DNA of 64,000 nt from a virus (Duplodnaviria; Heunggongvirae; Uroviricota; Caudoviricetes): positions 106,256-170,255 of the IMG/VR virus record IMGVR_UViG_3300023184_000031, one strand, 5' to 3'. Of this stretch, positions 2,789-53,520 are shown piece after piece. Numbering within the stretch: position 1 is the first letter of the stretch; each line of letters begins with the position of its first letter. Position numbers and translations under genes: made by a program. The notes beneath the pieces were generated by a model that was not told where the DNA came from, did no database searches, and worked only from the letters and a program-made list of their open reading frames with translations.

Positions 2789-3475
2789 ATGACTAGTATA
2801 TACGCTTTATCAAAAGAAAATTATATATTCTATATAGGAAAAACAATTAATGTACATAGTAGATTATATGAACATAAACAAAAGTATGGATCTAATATAG
2901 AAATAATAATATTAGATGAAGTAGAAGATAATAAATGGATGTTTTGGGAAAAATATTATATTTCATTGTTTAAAAGTTGGGGTTACATCTTAAAAAATAA
3001 AAATGATGGTGGTGGTGGAACAACACGAGGTACACTCCAAAAATCTCAAAAACTAAAAAAATCAAAACATAAACCTATTTTGCAATATGATTTACAAGGT
3101 AACTTTATTAGAGAATGGGAAAGTAGTAAACAAGTAGCGGACGAATTACAATTAACTAATTCTAGTGGAATAACTTCAGTTTTAAAAAACCATAGTCCTA
3201 CTGCTTATAAAAGCATATGGAAATATAAAACAGAAAATTATCCGTTTAAAATAAATCCTCCTCAATATTGGGAAAATAATTTAATACCTGTACTTCAATA
3301 TGATTTGCAAGGTAATCTAATAAAAGAATGGAGGAGCGGCAAAGAAGCTTCCTTATATTTAAATATAAATAAACAAAGCATATGCAATACTCTAAAAAAC
3401 AGAGCAAAGTCAGCATGTGGATATGTTTGGAAATATAAAAAAAGGAGGCATTATCTACCAGTCAATTTATTATGA
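2789..3475 (+). mobile_element. Free-standing GIY-YIG homing endonuclease with two NUMOD/IENR-like DNA-binding repeats.
   Basis: N-terminal 'IYALSKENYIFYIGKTINVHSRLYEHK' is a GIY-x10-YIG motif. Two C-terminal repeats 'ILQYDLQGNxIxEWxSxK' follow. The 3' end overlaps the DNA polymerase ORF start by ~59 nt. Confidence 0.8.
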
Positions 3476-7853: not shown

Positions 7854-8024
7854 ATGGAAAACATTATTGTAGAAATTAAAGTAACAAATGAAAAAGGAAA
7901 AAGCGACACAGTTTCATTTCCTTATGATGTTTATGTTGGTATGAAAGAAAATAATAACATAAATATGGTAGATGATTTATTAAGTGGTTTAATTGAAAAA
8001 CTAAAACAAAAAGATAAAAAATGA
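7854..8024 (+). CDS. Small hypothetical protein, 56 aa.
   Basis: ORF MENIIVEIKVTNEKGKSDTV... Its TGA stop overlaps the groEL ATG (ATGA), suggesting translational coupling. Below the ORF-track size cut-off. Confidence 0.35.
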   Translation: MENIIVEIKVTNEKGKSDTVSFPYDVYVGMKENNNINMVDDLLSGLIEKLKQKDKK

Positions 8025-9655
8025 GTAAAATAATCAGTTTTAACAGAGATGCTAAAGAAAAATTGAAAGTCGGTATTGACAAGGTCAATAACGCAGTATC
8101 AGTAACAATGGGACCATTTGGTCGTAACGTATTGATTGAAAAAGAACACGGACAAGTAATATCAACTAAAGATGGTGTTACAGTAGCTAAAACAGTAGTA
8201 TTGGAAGATCCAATCGAAAACATGGCCGCTACCGTAATTAAACAAGCAGCAGAAAAAACAGTAGATGCAGCCGGTGATGGTACAACAACATCAACAGTAT
8301 TAGCACATTCAATTGCAACACAAGCATTAGAGGCAACATCGTATGCATCAACAAATGCAACGCAAGTAAAGAAAGGCATTGAATCAGCTGTAAAAACAGT
8401 AGTAGCAGAATTAAAAAGAATGTCTGTTCCGGTATCTGATGAAACACAAATCAGACAGATTGCTACATTATCCGCTAACGGCGATGCTGAAATTGGTGAA
8501 TTAGTAGCCACAGCTATTGATAAAGTAGGAAGAGATGGAGTAGTAACAGTAGAAGAGTCGCGTACTGGGGAAACTAGTTTAGAAGTAGTAGAGGGTATGC
8601 AGTTTGAAAGAGGATATAAGTCACCATACATGGTTACAGACAACAATACCATGACAGCAGTATTGGATAATCCATTATTATTGCTTGTAGATGGTAGAGT
8701 ATCTTCTATTAAGGAATTATTGCCTTTACTTGAAGCAGTATCACAAGAAAATAAATCATTATTGATTGTAGCTGAAGATATTGAAGGGGAAGCATTAGCA
8801 GCATTGATTGTAAATAAAATGAGAGGTATTTTGAAGGTAGCTGCTGTTAAAGCACCTGACTTTGGAGAACGTAGAACATTAATTTTGGAAGATATTGCAA
8901 CGCTAACAGGTGGAACAGTAGTATCACACCAAAAAGGTATGAAGCTAGATAAATTCAATAAAGATTGGTTCGGTGAAGCTCGTACTGTAACAGTAGGTAA
9001 AGATACAACTACTATTGTTGATGGTAAAGGTGAAACTACAGCTATTGAATCTCGTATTATGGAATTAAAATCACAAATCGACAATTCAAATTCACCATAC
9101 GAAATTGAAAAGCTACAAGAGCGCTTATCTAAAATGATTGGTGGAGTAGCTATTATCAATGTAGGTGGTGGAACAGAGATCGAAATGAAAGAGAAGAAAG
9201 ACAGATTGGATGATGCTTTACAAGCAACTAAAGCTGCTCTTGATGAAGGTATCTTACCAGGTGCTGGTGTAGCATTATTACATGCTAGAGAAGCTATTAG
9301 CTATATTAAAACAGATGGTGAAGACTTTAATAAAGGTAAACGTATCGTACAAAATGCATGTATGTCTCCATTTGCACAAATTCTAACTAACGCTGGTGAA
9401 AATCACTATGAGTGGTTAATGCAATTGAAAGACCATAATGAAGATTCATCTTTAGTACCTAATATTGAAGAAGAAATATTAACAGACGCTTATACCTCAG
9501 GTATCATCGATCCAACTAAAGTAGTACGTTCAGCACTTGAAAATGCAGCTGCAGCCGCAGTAACATTACTAATGACTGAATGCGTAATATATGAAAAACC
9601 ATCTGATAAGAAAGCAGACGCTGGAATGGATATGATGGGTGGAATGGGAATGTAA
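8021..9655 (+). CDS. groEL: Chaperonin GroEL (Cpn60).
   Basis: 'AAGDGTTTSTVLA'. 'GGGTEIEMKEKKDRLDDAL'. C-terminal 'GMDMMGGMGM' tail. 544 aa. Confidence 0.92.
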   Translation: MSKIISFNRDAKEKLKVGIDKVNNAVSVTMGPFGRNVLIEKEHGQVISTKDGVTVAKTVVLEDPIENMAATVIKQAAEKTVDAAGDGTTTSTVLAHSIATQALEATSYASTNATQVKKGIESAVKTVVAELKRMSVPVSDETQIRQIATLSANGDAEIGELVATAIDKVGRDGVVTVEESRTGETSLEVVEGMQFERGYKSPYMVTDNNTMTAVLDNPLLLLVDGRVSSIKELLPLLEAVSQENKSLLIVAEDIEGEALAALIVNKMRGILKVAAVKAPDFGERRTLILEDIATLTGGTVVSHQKGMKLDKFNKDWFGEARTVTVGKDTTTIVDGKGETTAIESRIMELKSQIDNSNSPYEIEKLQERLSKMIGGVAIINVGGGTEIEMKEKKDRLDDALQATKAALDEGILPGAGVALLHAREAISYIKTDGEDFNKGKRIVQNACMSPFAQILTNAGENHYEWLMQLKDHNEDSSLVPNIEEEILTDAYTSGIIDPTKVVRSALENAAAAAVTLLMTECVIYEKPSDKKADAGMDMMGGMGM

Positions 9656-33895: not shown

Positions 33896-34435
33896 ATGTC
33901 TTCTCCAAAAAAATCAACAAAACCAACGGGTCGAATCATGTCATTAGGTGATATAGAAATAGACAACGTTAATGAAATAATAGAAGTTATATACGAAATC
34001 AACGAAGAAGATGCGAAAAAAACGCAAAAAGAACCAATAAAGCTAATAGTCAACTCACCTGGTGGAGATGTTTATCATGGATTTGCCTTAGTTGATGTCA
34101 TTTCAAACTCGCAGACTCCAATCCATACAATATGTCATGGCCACGCCATGTCAGCAGCACTAATAGTGTACGCCGCTGGTCATAAACGATTTGCAAGTCA
34201 ACGTGCCACATTTATGTACCATGAAATGTCATGGCTAACACAACAAGAAAAACTACAATATCATCTACAAGAAGCAAAAGAGGGAGAACGAATGTGGAAA
34301 ATATATGATGATTACTTACTTTCCCGTACGAAATTCACAGCAAAACAATTGAATGAGGTTAAAGATAGACGTGGAGAGTGGTATATGGATGTAAAAGTAG
34401 CACATAAATATGGGCTAGTAGACGAAATTTTATAA
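33896..34435 (+). CDS. ClpP-family serine protease.
   Basis: 'IKLIVNSPGGDV'. 'GHAMSAALIV' (Ser). 'FMYHE' (His). Confidence 0.7.
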   Translation: MSSPKKSTKPTGRIMSLGDIEIDNVNEIIEVIYEINEEDAKKTQKEPIKLIVNSPGGDVYHGFALVDVISNSQTPIHTICHGHAMSAALIVYAAGHKRFASQRATFMYHEMSWLTQQEKLQYHLQEAKEGERMWKIYDDYLLSRTKFTAKQLNEVKDRRGEWYMDVKVAHKYGLVDEIL

Positions 34436-35864: not shown

Positions 35865-36467
35865 ATGCCAGCAGCCAAACATCTTACCAAAACACAGATT
35901 GAAACGGCAATGCGCTATACGAAATCAGTTCGTGCCGCTGCCCGATATTTAGGTTGCTCATATCAACATCTTAAGCCGTTTATGAAAGCGCTTAGAGTGG
36001 ATGATAATGATCCAAATTCCCCAACATTATTTGATGCTCACAAGAATCAAAGTGGCAAGGCCATCCCTAAGTTCCTACCCAATAGACGTAAAGAACCTCA
36101 TGTAACACGAATATTCACAGAGGGTACTGGGTATGAATCATTTACAACAGAAAAAATACGAATTAGAGGCATCGCTGAAGGATTCTTGAGAGATGAATGC
36201 TATATGTGTGGCTTTAGTGAACGTAGAGTAACTGATTATAAGGTTCCATTATTAATGAACTTTAAAGATGGTAGTAAATGTAATTATCTATTAGATAACC
36301 TTGAACTATTATGTTATAATTGCTACTTCCTATACGTTGGTGAAGTATTAACACCAGACCAAATTCGCGACGTTGAAACAAATCAAACCACTAAAACTAA
36401 ATCGTTTGAGTGGGATTTAGATGATGATCAATTAGATAACATGCGCGCATTGGGCTTAATAGATTGA
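35865..36467 (+). CDS. HTH-like N-terminus with Cys-rich C-terminal domain protein.
   Basis: 'SVRAAARYLGCSYQHL'. 'CYMCGF...C...CYNCY'. Confidence 0.45.
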   Translation: MPAAKHLTKTQIETAMRYTKSVRAAARYLGCSYQHLKPFMKALRVDDNDPNSPTLFDAHKNQSGKAIPKFLPNRRKEPHVTRIFTEGTGYESFTTEKIRIRGIAEGFLRDECYMCGFSERRVTDYKVPLLMNFKDGSKCNYLLDNLELLCYNCYFLYVGEVLTPDQIRDVETNQTTKTKSFEWDLDDDQLDNMRALGLID

Positions 36468-40167: not shown

Positions 40168-41526
40168 ATGAAAAAGTTGATCACCCTCTTGCTGACTCTC
40201 TCTGTCCTTGTTGGAGCAGAAGCTCAAATCAAAAACATAGGACCAAAAGTAAACAGTACATACCACGAAATTCGCCCACTCGCTTCCGCAGACGGAACGA
40301 CTCTGTACTTCACAGTTCAAGGCAATCCAATTAACAAAGCTAAAGACGGACAAGACATTTGGATGTCTAAACGTGACTCTTTAGGTGAATGGGGTAAAGC
40401 ACAACGCTTACCAAATTACATTAACAGTGAAAAATATAATGGTGTATTTTCCATCTCAGCTGATGGTAATACATTAGTAATTAGAGGCAGGCGAAGCTCT
40501 TCAGGTTCGACTACACGCGGCTTTTCCAAGATTACAAAAATGGAAAATGGTGATTGGAGTATTCCTGAACCTTTAAAAATCCATGATTATGACAGATTAT
40601 CAAGAGGTATATATACAGGTGCTACTTTATCACCTGATGAAAAAGTATTGATAATGTATTTTTCTAATGAAATGAATAGTGATATGAATGACTTATGGAT
40701 AAGTCGTTTAAATGAAACTACAGGTGAATACTCAACACCATCTAAATTAAGTTTAAGCGAAGAAGATAATGATGAAATGAGTCCTTATATTGCCCCAGAC
40801 AATAAAACACTTTACTATGCATCAGACAGAAAAGGTGGTTTGGGTGGAATGGATATTTGGATGACAAGAAGAGTAGATGATACTTGGGAAAATTGGACAA
40901 TACCTGTTAATATGGGTAAACCAATTAACTCTAAAGGCTGGGATGCTTATTTTTCAGTAGATGTATTTGATAAAGCAGCTTACATCACTACAAACACTAA
41001 ATATAGCTTACCAGGTGATATGGGTGGTGCAGATATTGCTTATGTTAAATTACCAGACTCATTATTACCACTACCTATACCTCCAGCTCCTCCAGTATAT
41101 GATACTATTTATATTACTATAACTGATACTGTATATCAAAAGCAATTATGTGATCCACTTGATACTTTAAGTGGTGAAGAATTAGCGAAAGAATATAACA
41201 AAGGTAGAATATTATTTGATTTTGGTAGCTCAGTATTAAGACCCGATTCATATCATCAATTAGATATTATTGTTAAAATGATGAAAAATGACCCTAATAT
41301 GAAGATTGAATTAAGCGGTCACACAGATGCTGTTGGTATGGATAAAAGAAATATAGCTCAATCAGAAGAAAGAGCAATATCAACTAAACTATATTTAATA
41401 TCTAAAGGAATTGACCCTAATAGAATAAATACAGTGGGAATGGGAAATAAAGCACCTGTAGCACCAAATAGTACAGATGGTGGTCGTCAGTTGAATAGAA
41501 GAGTAGATATGAAGATAATAAATTAA
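40168..41526 (+). CDS. Secreted TolB-like repeat protein with C-terminal OmpA peptidoglycan-binding domain.
   Basis: Signal peptide 'MKKLITLLLTLSVLVGAEAQ'. C-terminal 'ELSGHTDAVGMDKRNIAQSEERA...NRRVDM' OmpA_C motif. Start trimmed to 40168. Confidence 0.75.
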   Translation: MKKLITLLLTLSVLVGAEAQIKNIGPKVNSTYHEIRPLASADGTTLYFTVQGNPINKAKDGQDIWMSKRDSLGEWGKAQRLPNYINSEKYNGVFSISADGNTLVIRGRRSSSGSTTRGFSKITKMENGDWSIPEPLKIHDYDRLSRGIYTGATLSPDEKVLIMYFSNEMNSDMNDLWISRLNETTGEYSTPSKLSLSEEDNDEMSPYIAPDNKTLYYASDRKGGLGGMDIWMTRRVDDTWENWTIPVNMGKPINSKGWDAYFSVDVFDKAAYITTNTKYSLPGDMGGADIAYVKLPDSLLPLPIPPAPPVYDTIYITITDTVYQKQLCDPLDTLSGEELAKEYNKGRILFDFGSSVLRPDSYHQLDIIVKMMKNDPNMKIELSGHTDAVGMDKRNIAQSEERAISTKLYLISKGIDPNRINTVGMGNKAPVAPNSTDGGRQLNRRVDMKIIN

Positions 41527-41680: not shown

Positions 41681-42217
41681 ATGAAAAAAGTAGTATTATT
41701 AGTAGTTGCTCTTATTGCAGCAATTACATTCACAAACGCACAAAACAACTTCAAAAAATCTAATAAATTTGTAGAAGGTACAGTATCTTACACAAAAGCT
41801 ACAGGTACTGATGCAGAATATGGATTTCAACCAACAGTTGGATATTTCTTAACTGATAGATTCGCAATTGGTGCTTCAGGCGCATTCGGTAAAGATGCAG
41901 CTGGTGTTAAAACAAACGGCATTGGCGCATTTGGGCGTTGCTATGTATTAAATATTGGTCAGAATTTGAAAACATTCTCACAATTAAACATAGGAACTGC
42001 ATCTGTTAATGATGCTGGTATTAAAACCTCTACATTTGGAGTTAATCTTGGTTTAGGTATAAACTATTTTGTTAGTCCTAAATTAGCTCTTACATTAAAT
42101 GTAGCAAATCTTGTAGATTATACAAGTATTAAATCTAACTCAACTTTTAATATTGGTTGGGAAGGTGTAACAAATCCATTAAGTACTTCTAAATTCGGAG
42201 TTTTATATAAATTCTAA
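41681..42217 (+). CDS. Outer-membrane beta-barrel protein.
   Basis: Signal peptide 'MKKVVLLVVALIAAITFTNAQ'. Alternating amphipathic strands. C-terminal '...FGVLYKF' aromatic terminus. Confidence 0.7.
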   Translation: MKKVVLLVVALIAAITFTNAQNNFKKSNKFVEGTVSYTKATGTDAEYGFQPTVGYFLTDRFAIGASGAFGKDAAGVKTNGIGAFGRCYVLNIGQNLKTFSQLNIGTASVNDAGIKTSTFGVNLGLGINYFVSPKLALTLNVANLVDYTSIKSNSTFNIGWEGVTNPLSTSKFGVLYKF

Positions 42218-44664: not shown

Positions 44665-45609
44665 ATGATTGGAACTTTAATTTTTATCTTATCTGCCCTT
44701 ATAATAGGGGGATCATTAGGAATCTTTAATGCAAAAACTTACGAAACAGCTCCAGATAAATATGGAGAGACAAATTTTAATCCAAAAGGTATGCTCAAAC
44801 TTGGATTAGTAGTAGCAATATCTTTAGTATTAGCATTAATTAACCCAGTAACAGTAGAACGTATTGATGTTGGTAATGTAGGACTAAAAGTAAATAATAC
44901 AGGTGATGAAAGAGGTGTTAGTAAGACAGCCTATGTAACAGGCTGGGTGTTTTATAACAGTTGGCTATCACGAATTAAAGAATTTCCTGTAACACAGCAA
45001 CATATTGATTACGAAGAGACATCTATCATTACCAAAGGAGGTTTCCAAGCCATTATCAAACCAAGCTTCAACTGGTCAGTCAACCCAGGTAATGCTGCTG
45101 ATATGTATCAAAACTTACGTCAGGATGTAGATCAAATTAAAGAAACATGGTTAAAAAATGCCATTATAGGTGCAGTTAATGATGTAGCTAACTTATATAG
45201 TGTAGATAGTATATTCAATCATAGAGCTGAATTTGAAGCTGATATAGTTAAAGAATGTAATAAACGTGTAAGTAAGTGGTTTAATGTTAGTCAGTTAAGA
45301 ACTAATATAGTACCACCTAAAGAAATTACTCAAGCAATTAATGCTAAGACAGCTGCTGTACAAGAAGCACAAGCCGCTATTCAACAGAAGATTGTAGCAG
45401 AAGCTCAAGCCTTAACTCAAATAGCTAAAGCTAAAGGTGATAGTGCTCAAGCAGTAATTGCAGCTGCTGGTAGAGCAGAAGCAGTAAAGAAAGAACAGCA
45501 ATTCTTAACACCACTATACATTGACTATTTAAAAGTACAAAAATGGAAAGGTGATGTACCAAATACAGTATTAGGATCTAACAGTAATACATTAATAAGT
45601 TTACCATAA
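44665..45609 (+). CDS. SPFH/band-7 (stomatin/prohibitin/HflC-like) membrane protein.
   Basis: N-terminal TM. Central SPFH-like domain. Ala/Gln-rich coiled coil 'AQAAIQQKIVAEAQALTQIAKAKGDSAQAVIAAAGRAEA'. Confidence 0.7.
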   Translation: MIGTLIFILSALIIGGSLGIFNAKTYETAPDKYGETNFNPKGMLKLGLVVAISLVLALINPVTVERIDVGNVGLKVNNTGDERGVSKTAYVTGWVFYNSWLSRIKEFPVTQQHIDYEETSIITKGGFQAIIKPSFNWSVNPGNAADMYQNLRQDVDQIKETWLKNAIIGAVNDVANLYSVDSIFNHRAEFEADIVKECNKRVSKWFNVSQLRTNIVPPKEITQAINAKTAAVQEAQAAIQQKIVAEAQALTQIAKAKGDSAQAVIAAAGRAEAVKKEQQFLTPLYIDYLKVQKWKGDVPNTVLGSNSNTLISLP

Positions 45610-45939: not shown

Positions 45940-47484
45940 ATGAAAAACTTAAAAAACCTTAAACTGCTTATATTAGCAGTGGTTTTATTATTCGGGTGTA
46001 GAAAAGATTCACTTTTCATTACAGATAATCCTGAAATTCCTAGTGTTGAATCTTTAGGCACAGGAGTAGTTCCTGATGACCCCGCTGCTGTTGAAAAAGT
46101 ACAGTTAAGAATTACACAAGATCTACTTGATGCTAAAATAGATTCTCTATTAGGTATTCCATCTTCTGAAAGAATAATAGCTAAAGGACCAAAAGAAAGA
46201 ATCCCACCTACTATTTCAATTACATCACCCTCTAACAACGACTCATTATCAGGTACTGTTACTATTAAATCAATTGCTACTGATAATATAGGTGTTGTAT
46301 CAGTTGCTTGTTATATTGATAATAACATATTAGCAACTGATGTAGCCGCTCCTTGGGATTTTACATTAAATACTCTAAACAGAGCAGGTGGTACGCATAT
46401 TATTAAAGTGACAGCTAAAGATGCTGCTGGTAATAGTGCATCTGCTTCTATTCAGGTAATAGTATATAACGGCTCAGGTGGTGGTGGAACTATTACTGAT
46501 ATAACTCCTCCATCAATTACAATTTTAACTCCTATAAATGGAACAACATTTAATATGGGAGATAACGTTAATATAACAACATCAGCAACAGATAATGTTG
46601 GTATAAGTAGTGTAAGTTTTAGTATTGATGGTACATTATGGGCTATAAAAACAATATCACCATATTCATATAACTGGTCTGCAATAAATGTACTTTCAGG
46701 TACACATACTATAACTGCAACAGCTAAAGATGCTGCTGGTAATAGTACATCAACAACTAATTTAATAACAATCAATACAATAATAACTCCACCAGTAAGC
46801 GGAGTACCTTCATCATTTGTATTAGTTACACCAACACCTAGAAGTCAAGGCGGAGAAGGCTCTTGTATGGCATGGGCAGTTGGCTACTCAGCATTCTCAA
46901 TAGATTGGGTATATAGAAATAATCAATCATCTTATAGTACAGCAACAAATATATTTAGCCCAGAATATCTTTATGATTATTATAGAATTAGATATGAAAT
47001 CCCAAACGGACAAGATCCCGCGAATTGTAATTTAGGTAGCTCACTTCAAGGTTGTGTTCAAATTATTCAAGACTCTGGGATTTGTACTTGGGATATGATG
47101 CCATATCAAAGTGGTATTTGTAATACAATGCCAAGTTCATCTCAATTTGCTAATGCTAGCCAACACAAATCAATTGGAACAACCAGAATTTATTCTACTG
47201 ATAGCGCTGGTATAAAAAATGCTATATATAATTTAAAGCATCCGATAATGATAGGAATGGATATTGATAATAATTTCTATAATGCTAGAGCTGGATACAT
47301 TTGGAATACATTTGGTACCAGCGTTGGTGGACACGGTTTAGCAGTAATTGGATGGGATGATAGTAAACATGCATTTAAAATAATGAACTCATGGGGTACA
47401 GGTTGGGGAGATGGAGGATTTTTATGGGTTGATTATAATATATTCTTTGCTCATACTTCATATTTTGTATATTATTTTAATTAA
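45940..47484 (+). CDS. Lipoprotein with two Ig-like domains and a C-terminal papain-family (C1) cysteine peptidase domain.
   Basis: 'LLFGCRKD' lipobox. Two ~80-aa repeats ending 'TAKDAAGNS'. 'QGGEGSCMAWAVGYS' (catalytic Cys). 'GGHGLAVIGWDD' (His). 'NSWGTGWGDGGFLWV' (Asn/Trp). Confidence 0.75.
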   Translation: MKNLKNLKLLILAVVLLFGCRKDSLFITDNPEIPSVESLGTGVVPDDPAAVEKVQLRITQDLLDAKIDSLLGIPSSERIIAKGPKERIPPTISITSPSNNDSLSGTVTIKSIATDNIGVVSVACYIDNNILATDVAAPWDFTLNTLNRAGGTHIIKVTAKDAAGNSASASIQVIVYNGSGGGGTITDITPPSITILTPINGTTFNMGDNVNITTSATDNVGISSVSFSIDGTLWAIKTISPYSYNWSAINVLSGTHTITATAKDAAGNSTSTTNLITINTIITPPVSGVPSSFVLVTPTPRSQGGEGSCMAWAVGYSAFSIDWVYRNNQSSYSTATNIFSPEYLYDYYRIRYEIPNGQDPANCNLGSSLQGCVQIIQDSGICTWDMMPYQSGICNTMPSSSQFANASQHKSIGTTRIYSTDSAGIKNAIYNLKHPIMIGMDIDNNFYNARAGYIWNTFGTSVGGHGLAVIGWDDSKHAFKIMNSWGTGWGDGGFLWVDYNIFFAHTSYFVYYFN

Positions 47485-47507
47485 TAATAACTTACCATAA
47501 TTAATTA

Positions 47508-47532
47508 AGCCCTCATTTTGAGGGCTTTTTTT
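47508..47532 (+). terminator. Rho-independent terminator.
   Basis: 'aagccctca-tttt-gagggctt' + 'ttttt'. Confidence 0.75.
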
Positions 47533-47561
47533 ATCATATTTATTGGAAACCAATTAAAAGT

Positions 47562-48137
47562 ATGAAACAGTCCCTCATTGTGCTGTTACTGCTGACCTTC
47601 TCTTTTATACTTAAAGCACAACCACTCGCCCAACAAGAAGTAGAACTATGTCCTGGTATTAGAACTAATTTTACTTACTTTTCCACTGCAATTACCACAA
47701 CAGGAAACTGGACGTGGACACTAAATGGAATCCCTATCTCCACAATTAGTAATACTAATATAAACTGGACTGATACAGGATATTTCACTATTAAAGTACA
47801 ATATATTGATAGCTGCGGTGTTGATACTAAATCATATATAGTACATGTATCTAAATGTAGACCAGCAGTTATATATTTTCCAAACGCATTTACACCCAAT
47901 AGAGATGGAATTAATGATGGTTGGAGACCTATAGGCGTTAATATAGTAAGTATAAAATATAACATCTGGAATAGATGGGGTGAAAGAGTATTTGAGGGTC
48001 ATAGCATGAATGATAAATGGAATGGGATGTATAAAGGAATGCCTCAAGATATAGCTACTTTTGTTGTACAAGCATTTTGGAAAGATATTACAGGAAAAGA
48101 GGGATATTACAAAGGTTTTATTATATTGATAAGATGA
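47562..48137 (+). CDS. Secreted protein with type-B T9SS (gliding-motility-associated) C-terminal domain.
   Basis: Signal peptide. 'VIYFPNAFTPNRDGINDGWRPIG...KWNGMYKGMPQDIATFVVQAF' matches the PNAFSPNGDGIND-type CTD. Confidence 0.7.
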   Translation: MKQSLIVLLLLTFSFILKAQPLAQQEVELCPGIRTNFTYFSTAITTTGNWTWTLNGIPISTISNTNINWTDTGYFTIKVQYIDSCGVDTKSYIVHVSKCRPAVIYFPNAFTPNRDGINDGWRPIGVNIVSIKYNIWNRWGERVFEGHSMNDKWNGMYKGMPQDIATFVVQAFWKDITGKEGYYKGFIILIR

Positions 48138-49258
48138 GAATATTATTAGTTATATTACTATTACCCTTTTTGGGTTATTCACAATGCGGTAATTTAGATT
48201 TTGAAACAGGTAATTTTACTGGTTGGAATGCTAGATTAGGTACTTGTTGTCCTATTGCTTTACCAACAGCTGGATTTGCTAATACCAGACAAACAATAAT
48301 GACCCAAGGCATTGATCCTCACACTTGTGGAGGATTAAGAACAGTATATCAAGGAACATACTCAGCAAGATTGGGCAATGATAGAGTAGGTGCTCAAGCA
48401 GAAGGATTATCATATTCATTTGTTGTGACACCTCAAACAAATATTATTAAATATGCTTATGCTGTTGTATTTCAAGACCCAGGACACTCTCCAGCTGATC
48501 AACCTCGATTTCAATCACGTGTTAGATTAGCAAATGGTACAGTAATACCTTGTACTGATTATACAGTAACAGCAGCATCTAATTTACCTGGGTTTCAGTA
48601 TTGTCCACCTCCACCTCCTGATACAGCAAATGTTGCTTGGAAAGATTGGACTGAAGTTGCTTTAGATTTATCTGCTTATACTGGTCAAACAGTATCACTT
48701 GAATTTGAAACAGGCGATTGCAAATTAAGAGGTCACTATGGATATGCTTATATAGATGCTGTTCAATGTGGAATGTTAGATACTCATGTACCCTATTGTA
48801 GTGGAGACAATTTATTAACTATAAACGCAATGGGTGGTTTTGTTAGTTATCTTTGGGAGAACGGAGATACAACTCAAACAACGACTATCAATCCTAATTT
48901 ATACGATACTGTATCTTGTGTTGTAACAACATATAGCGGCTGTCAAATAACATTACATTATATATTAGACGCAACACCAATTATTCCCTCATTTACAGCA
49001 CCTAATGTTTGTTTAGGTAACCCAACTCAATTCAATAACACAACACAACCACTTCCCGGTTATACACTGCTATATAGTTGGAATTTTGGTGATAATAATA
49101 CCTCTACTGTTGTTTCTCCATCTCATACCTATTTATCTGTAGGAACATATAATATTACACTTACTGCTAATGCATTAGGTAGTTCGTGTAATGCATCTGT
49201 TCAGGGACAAGTAATAGTAAAACCATTACCAACAATAACCCCAATTATACATAATTAA
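48134..49258 (+). CDS. Secreted protein with C-terminal PKD domain.
   Basis: Signal peptide 'MRILLVILLLPFLGYSQC'. 'YSWNFGDNNTSTVVSPSHTYLSVGTYNITLTA' PKD signature. ATGA overlap with the upstream gene. Confidence 0.7.
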   Translation: MRILLVILLLPFLGYSQCGNLDFETGNFTGWNARLGTCCPIALPTAGFANTRQTIMTQGIDPHTCGGLRTVYQGTYSARLGNDRVGAQAEGLSYSFVVTPQTNIIKYAYAVVFQDPGHSPADQPRFQSRVRLANGTVIPCTDYTVTAASNLPGFQYCPPPPPDTANVAWKDWTEVALDLSAYTGQTVSLEFETGDCKLRGHYGYAYIDAVQCGMLDTHVPYCSGDNLLTINAMGGFVSYLWENGDTTQTTTINPNLYDTVSCVVTTYSGCQITLHYILDATPIIPSFTAPNVCLGNPTQFNNTTQPLPGYTLLYSWNFGDNNTSTVVSPSHTYLSVGTYNITLTANALGSSCNASVQGQVIVKPLPTITPIIHN

Positions 49259-49267
49259 AAAGAAAAC

Positions 49268-51565
49268 ATGAAAAAAATCGTTTTATTATTAACACTATTA
49301 TTTACAATAGCATTCGCTAATGCTAGGAAATTTTATTTTAGTTCTTCAACCGGTAACGACAGTTACACTACAACACAAGCACAAAACCAAGCTACACCTT
49401 GGGCAACATTAAGGAAATTAACACAGATGACTACCAATACAAATGGTACAACTGTATTTAGAGCAGGTGATAGTATTTGCTTTAAACGTGGAGATGTATT
49501 TGCTAATGGAATGGCTAATGGGTATTGTTCAGCTTATTGGTGGAATGTACAAGGTGATGCTTATTTTACAGCACCAAGTGGCACACCAGGTAATCCAATA
49601 GTAATTACTAATTATGGTGATCCAACTTTACCATTACCAAACTGGTTATATCCAACTGCAACATACCCTGTATCGACTTGGAATAGTAGAGAAGGTAGAG
49701 CAGTAATTGAATTTTCAGGCGTTCACGATATTGTTGTAGACGGTATCCAATCAAATGATTTTAGAGTACCAGAATGGGATAAATCGAATCCTGGTTATAC
49801 AGCAGGTTGGATATTAGGAGAACCTACACGTTCACCTGCTTATGGACAAGCAGGTTGTGTTTCAGATACTAATTTAAGAAAACAATTTGTAAGAAGATTT
49901 ACACTTAAAAACTGTGTATTCAATAATTGTATCTATGGTATTCAAGATTGTGCAATGTGGGATAGTAAAATAACTAATTGTACATTTACAAACTTTAAAT
50001 CATCAGCTGATACAGCTGGTACACATGATATAATGGCAGGTTCATTAGATGGATTGTGTGGATTTAATCTTGAAATTAGTCATAACCTTATTAAAGGAGC
50101 TTGGGGTAAATCAGGTAGGATTGGTTCGTGTGGTGGATTAGGTGGTGTAGCATTAGATATCTTTTGTCTACAAGATTCAAGAGTATGTTACAACACTGTT
50201 ATAGATTGTGATGGATTTATTGAGGTGGGTAATTTAGATCATAACGACACATTGAGTGGTGCTCAAAGAGATACATTTGCCTTTAATAAAATTATTAACT
50301 GTGGTCAGTTTGCTTATATTCATGGCTCAGTAGGAGATCCATTCGCAGGTAACAACCACCATTTAGCTTTTTGGAATAATATATGCATATCAAATAATAA
50401 AGATAGGTTTATAGGTTGGGGATTTGGTAAAGATGTTTATGGAGACGGACAAGGATTTGGAGTTGGTACACGTCAACCTTGGTGGTTTCTAAGAGACCCA
50501 TTTAATACACTAAATGTTGATCAAATGAGACCAACAGTAAATACTGTTCGAGGTTCTAATGTTATAACAGTAAGTACAAATGCAGGAATTTCTATTGGGT
50601 CAGTTTGGTTTACGGATGATGATAATTTAGCTAGTAATAATTATAAAACTGTTACTGTAACGGCTATTAATGGTAATACGCTTACATTAAGTGACACAGC
50701 AACAAGAACTGTTAATGGCTTTGTTTGTTCTGGTGAATCAGGATTTTATCTCCCAGTATCTAATCAAACCTGGAGCAATCCAGCTAATGGAGCTTGGAGT
50801 AATTATGGTGGTGGTAGATTTACAATACAATACGCTGGCGACTTATATGTTCATGGTAATCAATATGATACTTTATTTGATATGAGAAATAATATATTCT
50901 ATTGGACTACAGGTATGCAGGGATTATATAATAGAACTAGATTTAAAAGAAATAATAATATATATATGCCAATTGGTGGCTGTCGATATCCATCAGCATT
51001 AGGAGGTACTTTAAATTCAAATGAAAGAATAATAACATCAAAAATATTTACTGATACTTTAGCTTTATATCCTGAAAATTGGGACTTACACCCAGTAGAT
51101 ACGAGTTATGCTTATAGAGGTGGAACTCCAATTCCAGGATTTAATGTTGATTTTGAAGGATATCCAATCACAGCTCCATTTATAGGATTATATACAAAAT
51201 TAGGTGCTGTTAGTATTGATACTTGTAGATTTACTTATGGACAATGGTCAGTATGCAATAGTAGTTATCAAACAAGACCATACACTACCTCACCTGTTAA
51301 CTGTATAGGAACACCTCCATTAGATAGTATTCAAAGAACTTGCAGTAATACAATTACAGTAACTCGTTTTTATTATAATTCAAGTCGCACTAGTATTCGT
51401 GTTGAATCTAACATAGCAGGGACGATAACAATTCAGAACACATTAGGACAAGTAGTTCGTGTGTTAAGTTATCCTGCAGGTAATAACTTGATTAATGTGA
51501 GTATGTTAGCAAGAGGATTTTATTTAGCATCAACTTACAATCAAACAATTCGATTCTTTAGATAG
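49268..51565 (+). CDS. Secreted right-handed beta-helix (pectate-lyase/depolymerase-like) protein with type-A T9SS C-terminal sorting domain.
   Basis: Signal peptide 'MKKIVLLLTLLFTIAFANA'. Repeated 'NC.F.N' beta-helix rungs. C-terminal ~80 aa 'TITIQNTLGQVVRVLSYPAGNNLINVSMLARGFYLASTYNQTIRFFR'. Confidence 0.7.
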   Translation: MKKIVLLLTLLFTIAFANARKFYFSSSTGNDSYTTTQAQNQATPWATLRKLTQMTTNTNGTTVFRAGDSICFKRGDVFANGMANGYCSAYWWNVQGDAYFTAPSGTPGNPIVITNYGDPTLPLPNWLYPTATYPVSTWNSREGRAVIEFSGVHDIVVDGIQSNDFRVPEWDKSNPGYTAGWILGEPTRSPAYGQAGCVSDTNLRKQFVRRFTLKNCVFNNCIYGIQDCAMWDSKITNCTFTNFKSSADTAGTHDIMAGSLDGLCGFNLEISHNLIKGAWGKSGRIGSCGGLGGVALDIFCLQDSRVCYNTVIDCDGFIEVGNLDHNDTLSGAQRDTFAFNKIINCGQFAYIHGSVGDPFAGNNHHLAFWNNICISNNKDRFIGWGFGKDVYGDGQGFGVGTRQPWWFLRDPFNTLNVDQMRPTVNTVRGSNVITVSTNAGISIGSVWFTDDDNLASNNYKTVTVTAINGNTLTLSDTATRTVNGFVCSGESGFYLPVSNQTWSNPANGAWSNYGGGRFTIQYAGDLYVHGNQYDTLFDMRNNIFYWTTGMQGLYNRTRFKRNNNIYMPIGGCRYPSALGGTLNSNERIITSKIFTDTLALYPENWDLHPVDTSYAYRGGTPIPGFNVDFEGYPITAPFIGLYTKLGAVSIDTCRFTYGQWSVCNSSYQTRPYTTSPVNCIGTPPLDSIQRTCSNTITVTRFYYNSSRTSIRVESNIAGTITIQNTLGQVVRVLSYPAGNNLINVSMLARGFYLASTYNQTIRFFR

Positions 51566-51634
51566 ATTTTAGCAGGTTTGTTGTTATAGATAGTAGTGGT
51601 CAATATTTATACCCGTAAATAACCATTAACTACC

Positions 51635-52642
51635 ATGAAAAAATTACTAGTGTGTCTTGTGACATTGTGGATATTGTCTACAAATGTCAACGCCCAATGT
51701 ACAGACGTATTTGGGAATATAGTCGAGTGTCCTACTGAGAACGACTCGCTAGCAGTTTACAACAACGCTTTAAAAGTATATGATTTTTACGAAAAGAGTC
51801 CTAATTATAGAAAATTATCTTCTAGAAAGTTAAGAACAAGACAAGACGTATTAAATTGTTTCTATAGTTTACAAGATGCAGTTGATAGTTTTAGAACATT
51901 ATGGCAAAGAAGAGAACAAGTATTAAAAGGAGCTGATTTACCTGGAGTATTATTACCTAGAGGGGGTAGAAATATACCTATAAATGAATATTATCAATAT
52001 ATTGATGCTTATAGATTCTATCAACGCGAATTAGAAAATGGAATATTAAATACTAATTCACCATTTCCTATTTATGATACTAGAATCAATCCTTTAGTTG
52101 TTAACTCATATAACAATGAAATAGGATATGATGATTTCAATGGTGACTTTGTTAACGTAGCATTATATATTCCAGTAACAATTAAGCCATTTAGATTATT
52201 AACTGATTCAGAAAAAGTAATAAGACAAAAGATACTTAGTGGTATAATTCCAAATAAGGTTATTCCAAAAACTACTAAAAAGGATAAACCAAAACCACAA
52301 ATACCACCTCCAGGTAAAAGAATAACATCTGATACTACATTATTACCTAGTGCTAATATTGATTTTGATACAATAAGATTAGTTAAAAAAGATGAAATGA
52401 TATTTGGTAAAGTACCATCTGATGGTATTCCTATATACTTATGGGAACCAAATGGTGGTGGATGGATAATTGGTTGGATGGTAAAAAGACAATTTAGAAA
52501 ATTCTTACCAACAGATGAACATTATTGGTCAGTACCTAAACGTATTAAAGCATTTTTAAATGATGATGCTGCTGTTGAGAAATACTTAAGATTAAAATAT
52601 GGTGACTACTATGATGGTTACTATTTTGGAGGGCAAGATTAA
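51635..52642 (+). CDS. Secreted hypothetical protein.
   Basis: Signal peptide 'MKKLLVCLVTLWILSTNVNA'. Confidence 0.5.
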   Translation: MKKLLVCLVTLWILSTNVNAQCTDVFGNIVECPTENDSLAVYNNALKVYDFYEKSPNYRKLSSRKLRTRQDVLNCFYSLQDAVDSFRTLWQRREQVLKGADLPGVLLPRGGRNIPINEYYQYIDAYRFYQRELENGILNTNSPFPIYDTRINPLVVNSYNNEIGYDDFNGDFVNVALYIPVTIKPFRLLTDSEKVIRQKILSGIIPNKVIPKTTKKDKPKPQIPPPGKRITSDTTLLPSANIDFDTIRLVKKDEMIFGKVPSDGIPIYLWEPNGGGWIIGWMVKRQFRKFLPTDEHYWSVPKRIKAFLNDDAAVEKYLRLKYGDYYDGYYFGGQD

Positions 52643-52691: not shown

Positions 52692-53492
52692 ATGAATCAA
52701 GAATTGAACACAAGTAGCATGATGAGTAGCAACAGTTACTCACTTGATGAAATTAAAATTATGGCTCCATCAGTATTTACTACTGAGAAAGCAGCTCACC
52801 TAACAGACAAATATATCCAAACACCAACATCACGTGTGGTTGAGGATTTAATGGCATTGGGTTGGCAGGTAACTAAAGCACAAGAAGTTAGATCTAAGAA
52901 ATTTAAAGGATTCCAAAAACACATTGTCGTATTTAGACACCCAGACATTCAAATTAAGGGTAAGAACGGTGATGATTCGTTTCCACAGATCCTATTGACA
53001 AATAGTCATGATGGTAAAGCAGCATTTAATTTCAGAGTAGGTATATTCCGTCTTGTGTGTAGTAATGGATTGGTTATTAGTGATGCTGATTTTAGTAATG
53101 TGAGCATCCGCCATACCAATTACACATTTGAGTCATTACAGGCGAAAGTAAACGAGGTAATTGAGAAGTTACCAGGTCTGGTACAGAAGATTAATCTGTT
53201 TAAAAACACAAACCTAACTGAAGCTCAAATGACTGATTTCGCTTATAAAGCAGTATCATTGCGTAGCAAAGCAACAGTTAATATTATGGAAGTGCTTGAA
53301 GCGACTCGTAGTGAAGATCAAGGTAATGATTTATGGGCTGTGTTTAATAGAGTACAAGAGAAAGTGTTGGGTGGTAGTTATAGCTACGGACGTAAACAAC
53401 GTAAGGCACGTTCAGTAACATCATTCCAAAAGGATATTGAGTTGAATGAGAAATTGTTTGAATTAGCAGGTTCGTATTTAGTAGAAGCTTAA
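52692..53492 (+). CDS. Phage/plasmid-associated protein (DUF932-like), tentative.
   Basis: 'FRLVCSNGLVI' and overall size recall the DUF932 family. Preceded by the conserved promoter motif and followed by a terminator. Confidence 0.4.
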   Translation: MNQELNTSSMMSSNSYSLDEIKIMAPSVFTTEKAAHLTDKYIQTPTSRVVEDLMALGWQVTKAQEVRSKKFKGFQKHIVVFRHPDIQIKGKNGDDSFPQILLTNSHDGKAAFNFRVGIFRLVCSNGLVISDADFSNVSIRHTNYTFESLQAKVNEVIEKLPGLVQKINLFKNTNLTEAQMTDFAYKAVSLRSKATVNIMEVLEATRSEDQGNDLWAVFNRVQEKVLGGSYSYGRKQRKARSVTSFQKDIELNEKLFELAGSYLVEA

Positions 53493-53498
53493 GAAATT

Positions 53499-53520
53499 GG
53501 AGGGGCGAAAGCCCCTCCTT
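53499..53520 (+). terminator. Rho-independent terminator.
   Basis: 'ggaggggc-gaaa-gcccctcc' + 'tt'. Confidence 0.65.

Follow-up and report, generated by a model that had tools for sequence, protein, structure and literature searches.

On balance, we favor the view that the sequence analyzed here (a window of 64,000 nucleotides) comes from a lytic, T4-like phage of ~170 kb that infects Bacteroidota possessing a type IX secretion system (T9SS), and that the phage carries a conserved yet flexible "envelope island," proteins of which would be exported by the host T9SS to remodel surface polysaccharide. In Bacteroidota, the cell surface, with its gliding adhesins, enzymes that degrade polysaccharides, and virulence factors, is built mainly by way of the T9SS. 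That the phage hijacks this host system is well supported in silico by the phage context of the genes and the sorting-domain homology of two of their products. The cassette probably functions in surface-glycan remodeling, and release of a depolymerase by the phage is plausible. The gene structure, domains, folds, CTD homology, phage context, and conservation are seen in the data, whereas secretion itself, the substrate acted on, and any gain for the phage are points that we infer. The whole case is an in silico one and concerns an uncultured phage.

The cassette consists of three adjacent + strand ORFs, which are real and lie exactly where the first-pass annotation placed them: a mini-protein of 191 aa with a C-terminal domain (CTD) of type B (47562-48137), a PKD protein of 374 aa counted from its ATG (48134-49258), and a β-helix protein of 765 aa (49268-51565). 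The start of the 374-aa ORF overlaps the stop of the 191-aa ORF (ATGA), and an alternative listed TTG start at 48077 was judged unlikely. All three products have signal-peptide-like N termini, as had been claimed; signal peptides were called heuristically from the N-terminal sequence. Such N termini occur in only 9 of the 97 non-overlapping + strand ORFs of the window, and eight of these nine lie within 40.1-52.7 kb, including five consecutive ORFs from 45940 to 52642. Further, several pre-proteins of the island fit the Q-rule for Bacteroidetes signal peptides (Gln at +1; PMC5837995). A terminator-like hairpin followed by a T-run (47507..47527, +) divides the cassette from the upstream C1-peptidase gene, and a ATATTTAT motif is found at 47536, 26 nt 5' of the ATG of the 191-aa ORF. 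The same unit contains a gene for a 335-aa signal-peptide protein with Gln at +1 (51635..52642, +), which has no family match but keeps its position in relatives, and ends after a DUF932 gene (52692-53492) at a strong terminator-like hairpin of 8 bp with seven G-C pairs (53499..53518, +). The unit is thus bracketed by two of the 19 terminator-like sites observed, compared with 4.2 expected.

The surrounding genes are those of a T4-like phage. The window encodes a T4-type replisome (a gp43-like PolB, a gp45-like clamp (phrog_223), gp44 (phrog_168), and gp62 (phrog_225)), homing endonucleases, tRNAs, and a homologue of the tail-spike of the Flavobacterium myophage immuto; all genes are on one strand, and genes for capsid and terminase are absent from the window. 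Upstream of the cassette, the envelope island contains, all on the + strand, a PD40 and OmpA_C protein (40168-41526) and a 178-aa outer membrane β-barrel (41681-42217), each with a signal peptide and Gln at +1; an SPFH/Band-7 membrane protein (phrog_200; 44665..45609); and a lipoprotein-like protein (Cys20) of 514 aa in which two Big_7 domains are combined with a C1 peptidase of the papain family (45940..47484). The gene for this last protein is missing from one relative (L003).

The 191-aa protein (47562..48137, +) is a predicted mini T9SS substrate of type B. Its signal peptide spans approximately aa 1-20 (N terminus MKQSLIVLLLLTFSFILKA, followed by Gln at +1), and the type-B CTD occupies aa 105-190 of 191 (nt 47874-48134), i.e. 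the extreme C terminus. The check proposed with the initial type-B call was a search with TIGR04131, and the protein passes the curated cut-offs of both this model (43.6 bits; cut-off 35) and PF13585 (CHU_C; 46.3 bits; cut-off 27), the match spanning model positions 2-84 of 85. A single PKD-like Ig domain lies at approximately aa 21-100. Five blocks are invariant across the phage and cellular type-B CTDs (PNAFTPNxDGxND, NRWGE, KWxG, P, and G..LIR), and these may correspond one-to-one to motifs A-E, on which secretion depends according to PMC12618676. No PorP/SprF-like shuttle (PF11751-type) was matched among the scanned ORFs of the window, and the position directly 3' of the 191-aa ORF is occupied by the PKD protein gene instead of a cognate porP/sprF-like gene, which makes the 191-aa protein an "orphan" type-B substrate. 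Type-B CTDs were detected in at least 80 IMG/VR contigs; 29 of 76 ORFs with such a domain (38%) are 220 aa or shorter (mini or "naked"), and 11 do not exceed 130 aa. A 111-aa "naked" protein (L037) is composed of a signal peptide and a type-B CTD without a passenger. Phage type-B CTDs appear to be new.

The 374-aa protein (48134..49258, +) is predicted to be exported and glycan-binding-like, with a signal peptide, a CBM/MAM-like β-sandwich fold (approximately aa 20-215), an Ig-like domain, and a PKD domain (aa 280-357). The PKD assignment of the first-pass annotation was upheld (PF18911, 56.4 bits, above cut-off), but its status as T9SS cargo was not: it has no CTD, and the protein is therefore not demonstrably T9SS cargo. 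A cellular relative suggests how it is connected to its neighbor. Residues 26-374 of a 616-aa type-B sorting-domain protein of Flavobacterium (P0378, P0384) match the 374-aa protein of the phage from end to end at 43% identity, and the type-B CTD of the same Flavobacterium protein aligns with that of the phage 191-aa protein. The Flavobacterium version is a single polypeptide, whereas in the phage the order is reversed and there are two genes, coupled in translation, whose products both have a signal peptide of their own. Further, a mini type-B gene is paired with a CTD-less passenger homologue in all seven loci examined, and a fused version of the pair, of 569 aa, is present on another large phage-like contig (L036). 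The pair thus appears, from these alignments, to be a split, order-reversed form of a single-chain cellular type-B cargo, and to be new in this form.

The third protein (49268..51565, +) is a predicted exported, glycanase-like protein of 765 aa with four parts: a signal peptide (aa 1-19), a β-helix body (approximately aa 20-640), a Cys-rich TSP1-like module (approximately aa 653-692), and, at the end, a CTD of a divergent type-A kind (aa 693-765; nt 51344-51562). The right-handed β-helix that had been proposed for the body was borne out, the fold being a parallel one of glycanase type, although no Pfam, NCBIfam, or PHROG family could be assigned to it. Approximately 100 positions of the body are invariant across 70 phage-lineage sequences, and the Asp, Glu, Lys, and Arg residues that do not vary in the family are candidates for catalytic residues. 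The tail had been called a canonical type-A CTD. It scores below threshold with TIGR04183 (17.1 bits, or 21.2 for the isolated tail; cut-off 23) and PF18962 (16.4 bits; cut-off 27) and has FYYN in place of the canonical YPNP, so that "canonical" does not hold; a G-x-Y motif (GFYLAST) is present, and the C terminus (IRFFR) is basic and hydrophobic. Homology at the family level is established by comparison of sequences: close homologues (P0002, P0003, P0004, and P0028) do reach PF18962, and TIGR04183 matches 21 of 23 family tails (best E 2e-7). When the tail profile was searched against 1.84 billion proteins, the domain lay at the extreme C terminus in 58 of 67 low-repeat matches, and the distant matches were canonical YPNPA...KFVKE CTDs, all nine of those tested passing the cut-off (28-46 bits). 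The AF2 model of the tail is a seven-strand sandwich by strand count (aa 698-764 of 765; pLDDT ~84-93); type-A CTDs are defined as a 3+4 Ig-like β-sandwich, and CTD compatibility can be lineage-specific (PMC11285876). The tail-like domain is internal in a few C1-peptidase proteins, and the fold is therefore not exclusively a sorting signal. The "FYYN" tails appear to represent a new, phage-specific type-A subfamily.

The cellular homologues of the cargo proteins come from Chitinophagaceae and Flavobacterium, which agrees with the earlier assignment of the host to T9SS-bearing Bacteroidota; judged by the taxonomy of these homologues, the host is probably a member of the Chitinophagaceae or the Flavobacteriia. 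Chromosomally encoded proteins of Chitinophagaceae and Ferruginibacter (L017, L025, L011, and L012) have a β-helix body homologous to that of the phage protein (27-52% identity), begin with a signal peptide, and have a type-A sorting domain at the C terminus; some share the mature N terminus RKFYFSSSTGN. These chromosomal homologues end in PF18962 CTDs (31-40 bits; cut-off 27) of the canonical YPNP type and are proteins of 1,056-1,917 aa that are found in tandem arrays; in them the β-helix is combined with Big_9 and SprB repeats, and they have stalks of Ig and SprB repeats. By contrast, the protein of the phage is a compact one of 765 aa that has the Cys-rich module and the FYYN-type tail.

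We propose that, during infection, the phage pre-proteins would be exported to the periplasm by the host Sec system and signal peptidase I and that the host T9SS would then move two of them, the 765-aa and the 191-aa protein, across the outer membrane. The divergent type-A CTD would direct the 765-aa glycanase into the PorV route, for release or surface attachment, and the type-B CTD would direct the 191-aa protein to a PorP/SprF-type shuttle, which we assign to the host because none is encoded nearby. Points against this route are the lack of a shuttle gene among the scanned ORFs of the window, the sub-threshold type-A tail without YPNP, the internal copies of the tail-like domain in other proteins, and the absence of a CTD from the PKD protein. 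The 374-aa CBM-like PKD protein, as the passenger half of a bacterial cargo, may work together with the mini CTD-B protein. The most likely purpose would be to bind and cut or remodel surface polysaccharide (capsule, exopolysaccharide, or slime) on the infected cell; this would release the progeny and halt adsorption onto doomed cells, or shut out superinfecting phages.

Two other readings would take either the DNA or the tail for something else. The first-pass annotation had allowed that the block might be host DNA adjoining a prophage end, and the closest functional relatives are indeed cellular genes, and AT skew is lower in the block (0.01-0.05) than in the flanking DNA (0.08-0.2). An origin as host DNA, as a prophage flank, or through chimeric assembly is, however, effectively refuted: phage genes lie on either side on the same strand, the GC content of block and flanks is the same (0.33-0.34), no integrase was seen, an identical copy of the block is found mid-way (~102 kb) in an independent contig of 170,341 bp, and collinear relatives from several samples (L003, L004, L010, L038, and one more ENA contig) carry the same cassette. 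We consider it very improbable that the 765-aa protein is instead a virion-associated depolymerase, with the β-helix as an enzyme of tailspike type and the C-terminal sandwiches as common Ig-like decoration that has no role as a secretion signal. A homologue in a ~320-kb lineage does adjoin giant ORFs, and the internal occurrences of the tail-like domain would fit decoration, but a cleavable signal peptide (consensus MKK..LLL...ARKFYF) is kept in 70 homologues where a tailspike would have an N-terminal virion-adaptor or particle-binding domain, and none of the latter is present. Further, the gene sits among envelope and other non-structural genes and not in a structural module, the cellular homologues are bona fide T9SS cargo as predicted from their PF18962 CTDs, and both the terminal position of the tail and the recovery of canonical CTDs by its profile argue for a sorting domain.

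The remaining alternatives accept a link to the T9SS or to glycans but differ in purpose. Host adhesins and gliding motility are common phage receptors. The mini type-B CTD could thus be a decoy that titrates the PorP/SprF shuttles or the SprA translocon of the host and shuts down adhesin display and gliding, leading to superinfection exclusion or host takeover, with the glycanase perhaps secondary. The minimal passengers (one Ig domain in the 191-aa protein and none in L037), the frequency of mini and "naked" forms in IMG/VR, and the lack of a cognate shuttle gene would suit a decoy, as would the finding that type-B CTD fusions made in large amounts are secreted poorly, if at all, when no shuttle is produced along with them, and that shuttles are specific (PMC12618676). 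Nevertheless, we regard this as unlikely: the pairing with a CTD-less passenger homologue at all seven loci examined implies, by Rosetta-stone logic, cooperation and not pure jamming; the co-conserved type-A enzyme presumably requires a functional T9SS; and T9SS inhibition by a free CTD-B is hypothetical. An auxiliary metabolic role, in which the secreted CBM-like protein and glycanase widen the polysaccharide degradation of the infected cell and feed phage replication, is quite unlikely. The glycanase fold, the CBM-like partner, and cellular homologues that are multi-copy surface proteins of polymer-degrading Chitinophagaceae point in this direction, and such a role was suggested for the endoglucanase and GH39 of Cryophage (PMC7468147). 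However, the strong conservation of the enzyme body contrasts with nutrient-acquisition enzymes, which vary with environment; there is little time to forage outside the cell during a lytic cycle of the T4 kind; and the neighbors (a YkuD or YafK L,D-transpeptidase-like protein, OmpA, SPFH, and the C1 peptidase) indicate the cell envelope and not nutrition. Export for surface-polysaccharide remodeling is therefore the reading that we retain. A broader idea, which we hold to be doubtful, is that free type-B sorting domains are a tool of large Bacteroidota phages, the mini or "naked" CTD-B acting in trans either as an export or anchoring adaptor for a CTD-less passenger (a two-component T9SS substrate) or as a decoy that turns off gliding and the display of adhesins by titrating the PorP/SprF shuttles of the host. 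If true, free CTD-Bs and phage-specific type-A tails would constitute a previously unrecognized class of phage T9SS modulators.

The strategy is not undescribed, as had been supposed: phage-encoded substrates of the T9SS had been noted in only two papers, by Bellas et al. in 2020 (PMC7468147) and de Jonge et al. in 2019 (PMC6949934), in both cases with type-A CTDs only. The present locus extends phage T9SS cargo to T4-like jumbo phages and to both CTD classes. Phage type-B CTDs are widespread, and the unusual forms at hand (split cargo, naked CTDs, and the phage-specific tail) offer handles on CTD recognition and on possible phage manipulation of secretion, motility, and receptor display. Mini CTDs could also be put to use as secretion tags of minimal size or to inhibit the T9SS.

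Bellas et al. proposed host T9SS hijacking for Cryophage, with a link to superinfection exclusion (PMC7468147). Like the phage described here, Cryophage is a Bacteroidota phage with genes for glycan-active or adhesin-like proteins that have terminal T9SS CTDs, and its cargo genes lie in flexible islands that differ between near-identical phages. It is, however, an unrelated circular phage of 76 kb with endoglucanase, GH39, and PA14 passengers, whereas the T4-like phage of ~170 kb has, in addition, a CTD of type B, a cargo pair that is split, and tails of a divergent subfamily; both cases are in silico predictions. The gut phages of crAss-BACON cluster 2 also have ORFs with T9SS sorting domains, in that case a passing annotation beside head genes in a report that did not analyze the type of CTD, its conservation, or the mechanism (PMC6949934). 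The Porphyromonas gingivalis phages of Matrishin et al. (2023, PMC10367356) encode Q-rule signal-peptide proteins that, as here, fit Bacteroidota Sec/SPI export, and host outer membrane modification was proposed for them, but no T9SS CTDs were reported. Compared with phage tailspike and capsule depolymerases (pectin-lyase fold), the 765-aa protein begins with a signal peptide where those have a virion-adaptor domain and ends in a sorting domain; its model resembles a monomer, and its gene lies outside the structural region of the genome. Finally, a parallel to the 191-aa protein in its lack of an adjacent porP/sprF-like gene is provided by the orphan type-B substrates of F. johnsoniae that share the shuttle Fjoh_1677 (Paillat et al. 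2025, PMC12618676). A substrate of this kind must rely on a shuttle encoded elsewhere; in our case, with motifs compared as conserved blocks, the substrate is that of the phage, its passenger is minimal or absent, and the shuttle would be that of the host.

We located all three ORFs of the block that the first-pass annotation had described as a T9SS cargo cassette, each on the + strand: a 191-aa ORF (47562-48137), a 374-aa ORF (48134-49258), and a 765-aa ORF (49268-51565). The gene calls of relatives pick the same ATG for the 374-aa protein, with the same 4-bp ATGA overlap onto the preceding stop. Export signals were screened by a simple hydrophobicity and charge test on the N-termini of the 97 non-overlapping + strand ORFs of the window. 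Nine N-termini were signal-peptide-like; eight of these ORFs fall within 40.1-52.7 kb, including five consecutive ones from 45940 to 52642, and six have Gln directly after the probable cleavage site, which is the Bacteroidetes "Q-rule" of signal peptidase I substrates (PMC5837995). The 191-aa protein scored above the curated cut-offs of both type-B CTD models over residues 105-190 (TIGR04131, 43.6 bits, cut-off 35; PF13585, 46.3 bits, cut-off 27), as had been anticipated, and the 374-aa protein was confirmed as a PKD protein, being above cut-off for PKD_4 (56.4 bits). The proposal that all three proteins are T9SS cargo stands for the 191-aa protein with its type-B CTD but not in the same form for the 374-aa PKD protein, on which the curated HMMs found no CTD.

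The cargo block is phage DNA. We checked the possibility, raised with the initial reading, that it represents host DNA at a prophage end, and it is ruled out by the phage genes in the window, a mid-contig copy, collinear relatives, and matching GC. Every substantial ORF of the window lies on the + strand, and the window encodes a gp43-type PolB (best phage match a Microcystis myophage, 34%; >1,000 T4-like matches), a gp45-like clamp, the gp44 and gp62 clamp-loader subunits, GIY-YIG and HNH endonucleases, GroEL, ClpP, and two tRNAs. Further, an 868-aa ORF shares 46% identity with the protein annotated as tail spike in the Flavobacterium myophages vB_FspM_immuto (160 kb). A metagenomic contig of 170,341 bp (ERZ3460575 NODE_84) encodes an identical 191-aa protein at ~102 kb and agrees with the window in the neighbours on both sides; window positions 36.5-59.5 kb are collinear with L003, an IMG/VR contig. 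The cassette also occurs on contigs L004 (167 kb), L010 (24 kb), and L038 (44 kb) and on one further ENA contig, and the L010 protein has been recorded on a longer contig as well (up to 205 kb). The GC content of the block equals that of its flanks. A megablast search of window positions 40-60 kb against GenBank phages gave no match. We note that AT skew is 0.01-0.05 across the block (46000-51000), compared with 0.08-0.2 elsewhere, at constant GC, which fits either a differing amino acid composition in exported proteins or derivation of the genes from cells. As for the accessory genes, the GIY-YIG/NUMOD1 homing endonuclease (2789-3475) directly precedes the PolB ORF, the start of which it overlaps; the HNH endonuclease (35865-36467) is close to tRNA-Gln (37009) and tRNA-Glu (37312); and the GroEL-type chaperonin (PF00118, 219.6 bits) and ClpP protease are encoded at 8021-9655 and 33896-34435, respectively.

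The 191-aa and 374-aa proteins appear to be two halves of one cargo. All 21 detectable homologues of the former have 181-200 aa and consist of a PKD-like domain and CHU_C. The latter has 222 homologues; the cellular ones come from Flavobacterium (contigs of 3.7 and 4.6 Mb), and each is one 616-aa chain with an annotated T9SS type-B sorting domain. Residues 26-374 of the homologue P0378 align with the entire mature phage 374-aa protein at 43% identity, and its CTD is alignable with that of the 191-aa protein; moreover, a phage-like contig of 202 kb encodes a fused version of 569 aa, and the mature 191-aa protein aligns to the C-terminal PKD and type-B CTD of this fusion (E 3e-11). These alignments to single-chain cargo imply that in the phage one type-B cargo has been split into two proteins in reversed order, both with a signal peptide of their own. 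The pairing is present in all seven loci examined (the window, L003, L004, L010, L038, the ENA contig, and L037, from a 294-kb lineage). A frameshift artefact is ruled out by the reversed order, the separate signal peptides, and this recurrence. In L037, the CHU_C protein is only 111 aa long and comprises a signal peptide and a bare CTD.

The AlphaFold2 model of the 765-aa protein, built on a 70-sequence alignment, is confident (pLDDT 87.4, pTM 0.81). It begins with a signal helix, continues as a long right-handed beta-helix, and, after a Cys-rich linker that is poorly ordered, closes with a C-terminal sandwich of seven strands (residues 698-764). The curated HMMs gave no catalytic-family match for this protein. 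A tblastn search with it against GenBank phages found no match; its family was seen only in metagenomes and IMG/VR. The family has 192 detectable members, and its beta-helix body has ~100 invariant positions; D248, D254, R284, D297, D313, E319, and K341 are invariant residues. The C-terminus is modular and in the majority consists of one to three thrombospondin type-1 (TSP1)-like Cys modules (WSxC..QTR..PPLDSIQRxC) followed by a ~75-aa tail; in other members, SprB-type repeats or a tail that is short and basic take this place. In the window protein, the Cys-rich module (WSxC..QTR..C.G.PPLDSIQRxC; residues ~653-692, nt ~51224-51343) lies between beta-helix and CTD with a low pLDDT of 66-71, and homologues have 1-3 copies. 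The giant ORFs adjoining the beta-helix homologue in a 320-kb lineage had no CTD matches.

The tail of the 765-aa protein had been called a canonical type-A domain. Type-A homology is upheld at the level of the family, but the tail itself is divergent and scores below both thresholds (17.1 bits for TIGR04183, cut-off 23; 16.4 bits for PF18962, cut-off 27), reaching 21.2 bits against TIGR04183 when isolated. Four independent lines identify it as a divergent type-A CTD. TIGR04183 matched 21 of 23 family tails (best E 2e-7), and its other matches were T9SS-dependent proteins too. In a reciprocal search, a profile of the tails run against 1.84 billion representative proteins gave 126 matches; in 58 of the 67 low-repeat ones, the domain formed the very end of the protein, and these proteins were 81-1,187 aa long and had unrelated N-termini. 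More distant matches were textbook "YPNPA...IDVS.L..GVYF...KFVKE" CTDs, and all nine tested were above the curated cut-off (28-46 bits). The modelled tail, being a seven-strand sandwich, agrees with the structural definition of a type-A CTD (PMC11285876). Cellular homologues of the beta-helix, which form tandem arrays of 1,056-1,522-aa proteins on chromosome-scale Ferruginibacter/Chitinophagaceae contigs (5.97 and 4.69 Mb), have a beta-helix, Big_9, and SprB repeats and then PF18962 at 31-40 bits, and some share the mature N-terminus RKFYFSSSTGN with the phage protein. Canonical CTDs have YPNP, whereas the phage tail has FYYN in its place and terminates in ITFxR; these differences, and the presence of the phage-type tail at the end of unrelated passengers (P0144, P0154-P0158, P0161, P0162, P0170, and P0172), indicate that the phage tail is a distinct subfamily. 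As a caveat, in P0166, P0180, P0183, and P0188 (800-950 aa), the tail module and Cys motif are internal (residues ~148-226), and the C-terminus is a papain-like C1 peptidase resembling the 514-aa lipoprotein of the window (45940-47484). Run against PDB sequences, the tail profile was uninformative, returning only spurious WD40 (SMU1) matches and a marginal lipase C-terminus. Chitinophagaceae-type beta-helix/CTD genes were also seen at two loci, L011 (contig CALPIT020000014.1) and L029, in MAGs labelled Streptomyces griseus and Comamonas, labels that are likely due to mis-binning.

Judged from gene content and divergence, the cargo block behaves as a flexible island. Genes flanking the island are 85-95% identical between the window and L003; inside it, identity is 42% for the CTD-B protein, 72% for the PKD protein, and 64% for the adjoining 335-aa signal-peptide protein (51635-52642). 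Gene content varies as well, with a C1 peptidase and SPFH in the window and a 589-aa CTD protein and a YafK-like gene in L003. The envelope island as a whole (38.6-52.6 kb) encodes an M15 peptidase, a PD40 and OmpA_C protein, an OMP beta-barrel, a metallophosphatase, SPFH, and the C1-peptidase lipoprotein. In relatives, a YkuD/YafK-type L,D-transpeptidase/amidase-like gene comes next after the beta-helix gene (L004, 4503-5006; L010, 10277-10921; L038, 8940-9671; L003, 12780-13457); the window has none at that position. Local HMMs found no other CTDs in the window, and none of its scanned ORFs is a PorP/SprF-like shuttle gene, so the type-B protein is an "orphan" substrate there in the sense of Paillat et al. 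(PMC12618676), in whose study cognate pairs gave ipTM values >0.8. We note that the signal-peptide protein at 40168-41526 combines PD40 (WD40-like) repeats with OmpA_C, a pair of domains shared with PorE (TPR-WD40-CRD-OmpA_C), which is a T9SS component, and may be a phage mimic of PorE; searched against PDB sequences, it gave generic OmpA_C matches only, PorE (6TOP) ranking 10th (E 7e-13).

Terminator-like hairpins are enriched in the window (19 observed, 4.2 expected), and two on the + strand, at 47507-47527 and 53499-53518, enclose the CTD-B, PKD, beta-helix, 335-aa, and DUF932 (52692-53492) genes. Window-wide, no enrichment was seen for the T4 late-promoter motif TATAAATA (17 observed, 23.6 expected), sigma-70-like sites (67 and 60), or the motif ATATTTAT (25 and 25.5). 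Copies of ATATTTAT(A) on the + strand, which are mostly intergenic and frequently right behind terminator hairpins, occur 23-32 nt 5' of starts (45640, 45911, 47536, 51603, and ~10 more), and this element is a candidate phage promoter.

In silico, the locus combines predicted exported pre-proteins, two CTD classes, phage residence, and conservation with local variability, and the models display a glycanase fold and a CBM-like fold. We propose that Sec and signal peptidase I would export the pre-proteins, after which the glycanase would cross the T9SS by the PorV route and the mini CTD-B protein via a host PorP/SprF-type shuttle, and that the 191-aa and 374-aa proteins, as halves of one split cargo, may cooperate. 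The target would be host surface polysaccharide, with the effect that progeny are freed, receptors destroyed, or superinfection excluded. The window also contains a ~20-kb glycan/nucleotide-sugar biosynthesis cluster (13361-33870; GC down to 0.23-0.30) with two GT1, two GT2, and one GT10 fucosyltransferase-like gene; several GDP-mannose-dehydratase/epimerase-type genes, a DegT aminotransferase, a 600-aa TPP enzyme, and an FkbM methyltransferase; and a HAD-nucleotidyltransferase fusion, DJ-1/PfpI, cupin, and DUF707. This cluster and the secreted-type glycanase suggest that the phage may both make and cut surface glycans. Other roles have been weighed against polysaccharide attack by secreted cargo. 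That free CTD-B jams the T9SS is improbable, and a nutrient-acquisition role of the block as auxiliary metabolic genes (AMGs) is slightly more doubtful still; that the beta-helix protein is a virion depolymerase we regard as very unlikely.

Phage type-B CTDs are common. An alignment-based scan placed them on at least 80 IMG/VR contigs, where the 191-aa protein as single query had given no match among viral contigs, and two GenBank huge phages (634-642 kb) have them too. Among the matches listed, 76 are complete ORFs, with the CTD at the extreme C-terminus in 61, a signal-peptide-like N-terminus in 58, and a length of ≤220 aa in 29, including 11 of ≤130 aa. Type-A and type-B cargo occur together on L036, a 202-kb phage-like contig. 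We also observed that L036 and L037 have CHU_C proteins, a PF18962 protein, a 760-789-aa S8 peptidase, Endonuclease_NS, and thymidylate synthase close together (with glutamine synthetase in addition on L037) and that a signal-peptide family of ~816-818 aa with a terminal type-B CTD recurs on numerous viral contigs, up to 290 kb in length (IMG/VR loci L056-L077). Literature searches on phage type-B CTDs found nothing relevant. The first-pass annotation had regarded the overall strategy as undescribed, a claim that fails because the concept is already in print: hijacking of the host T9SS by a phage (Cryophage) was proposed by Bellas et al. in 2020 (PMC7468147), and T9SS sorting-domain ORFs were reported in gut phages by de Jonge et al. 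in 2019 (PMC6949934). Compared with these precedents, the principle is not new, but the locus adds new, testable twists, and the case for it is solid in silico.
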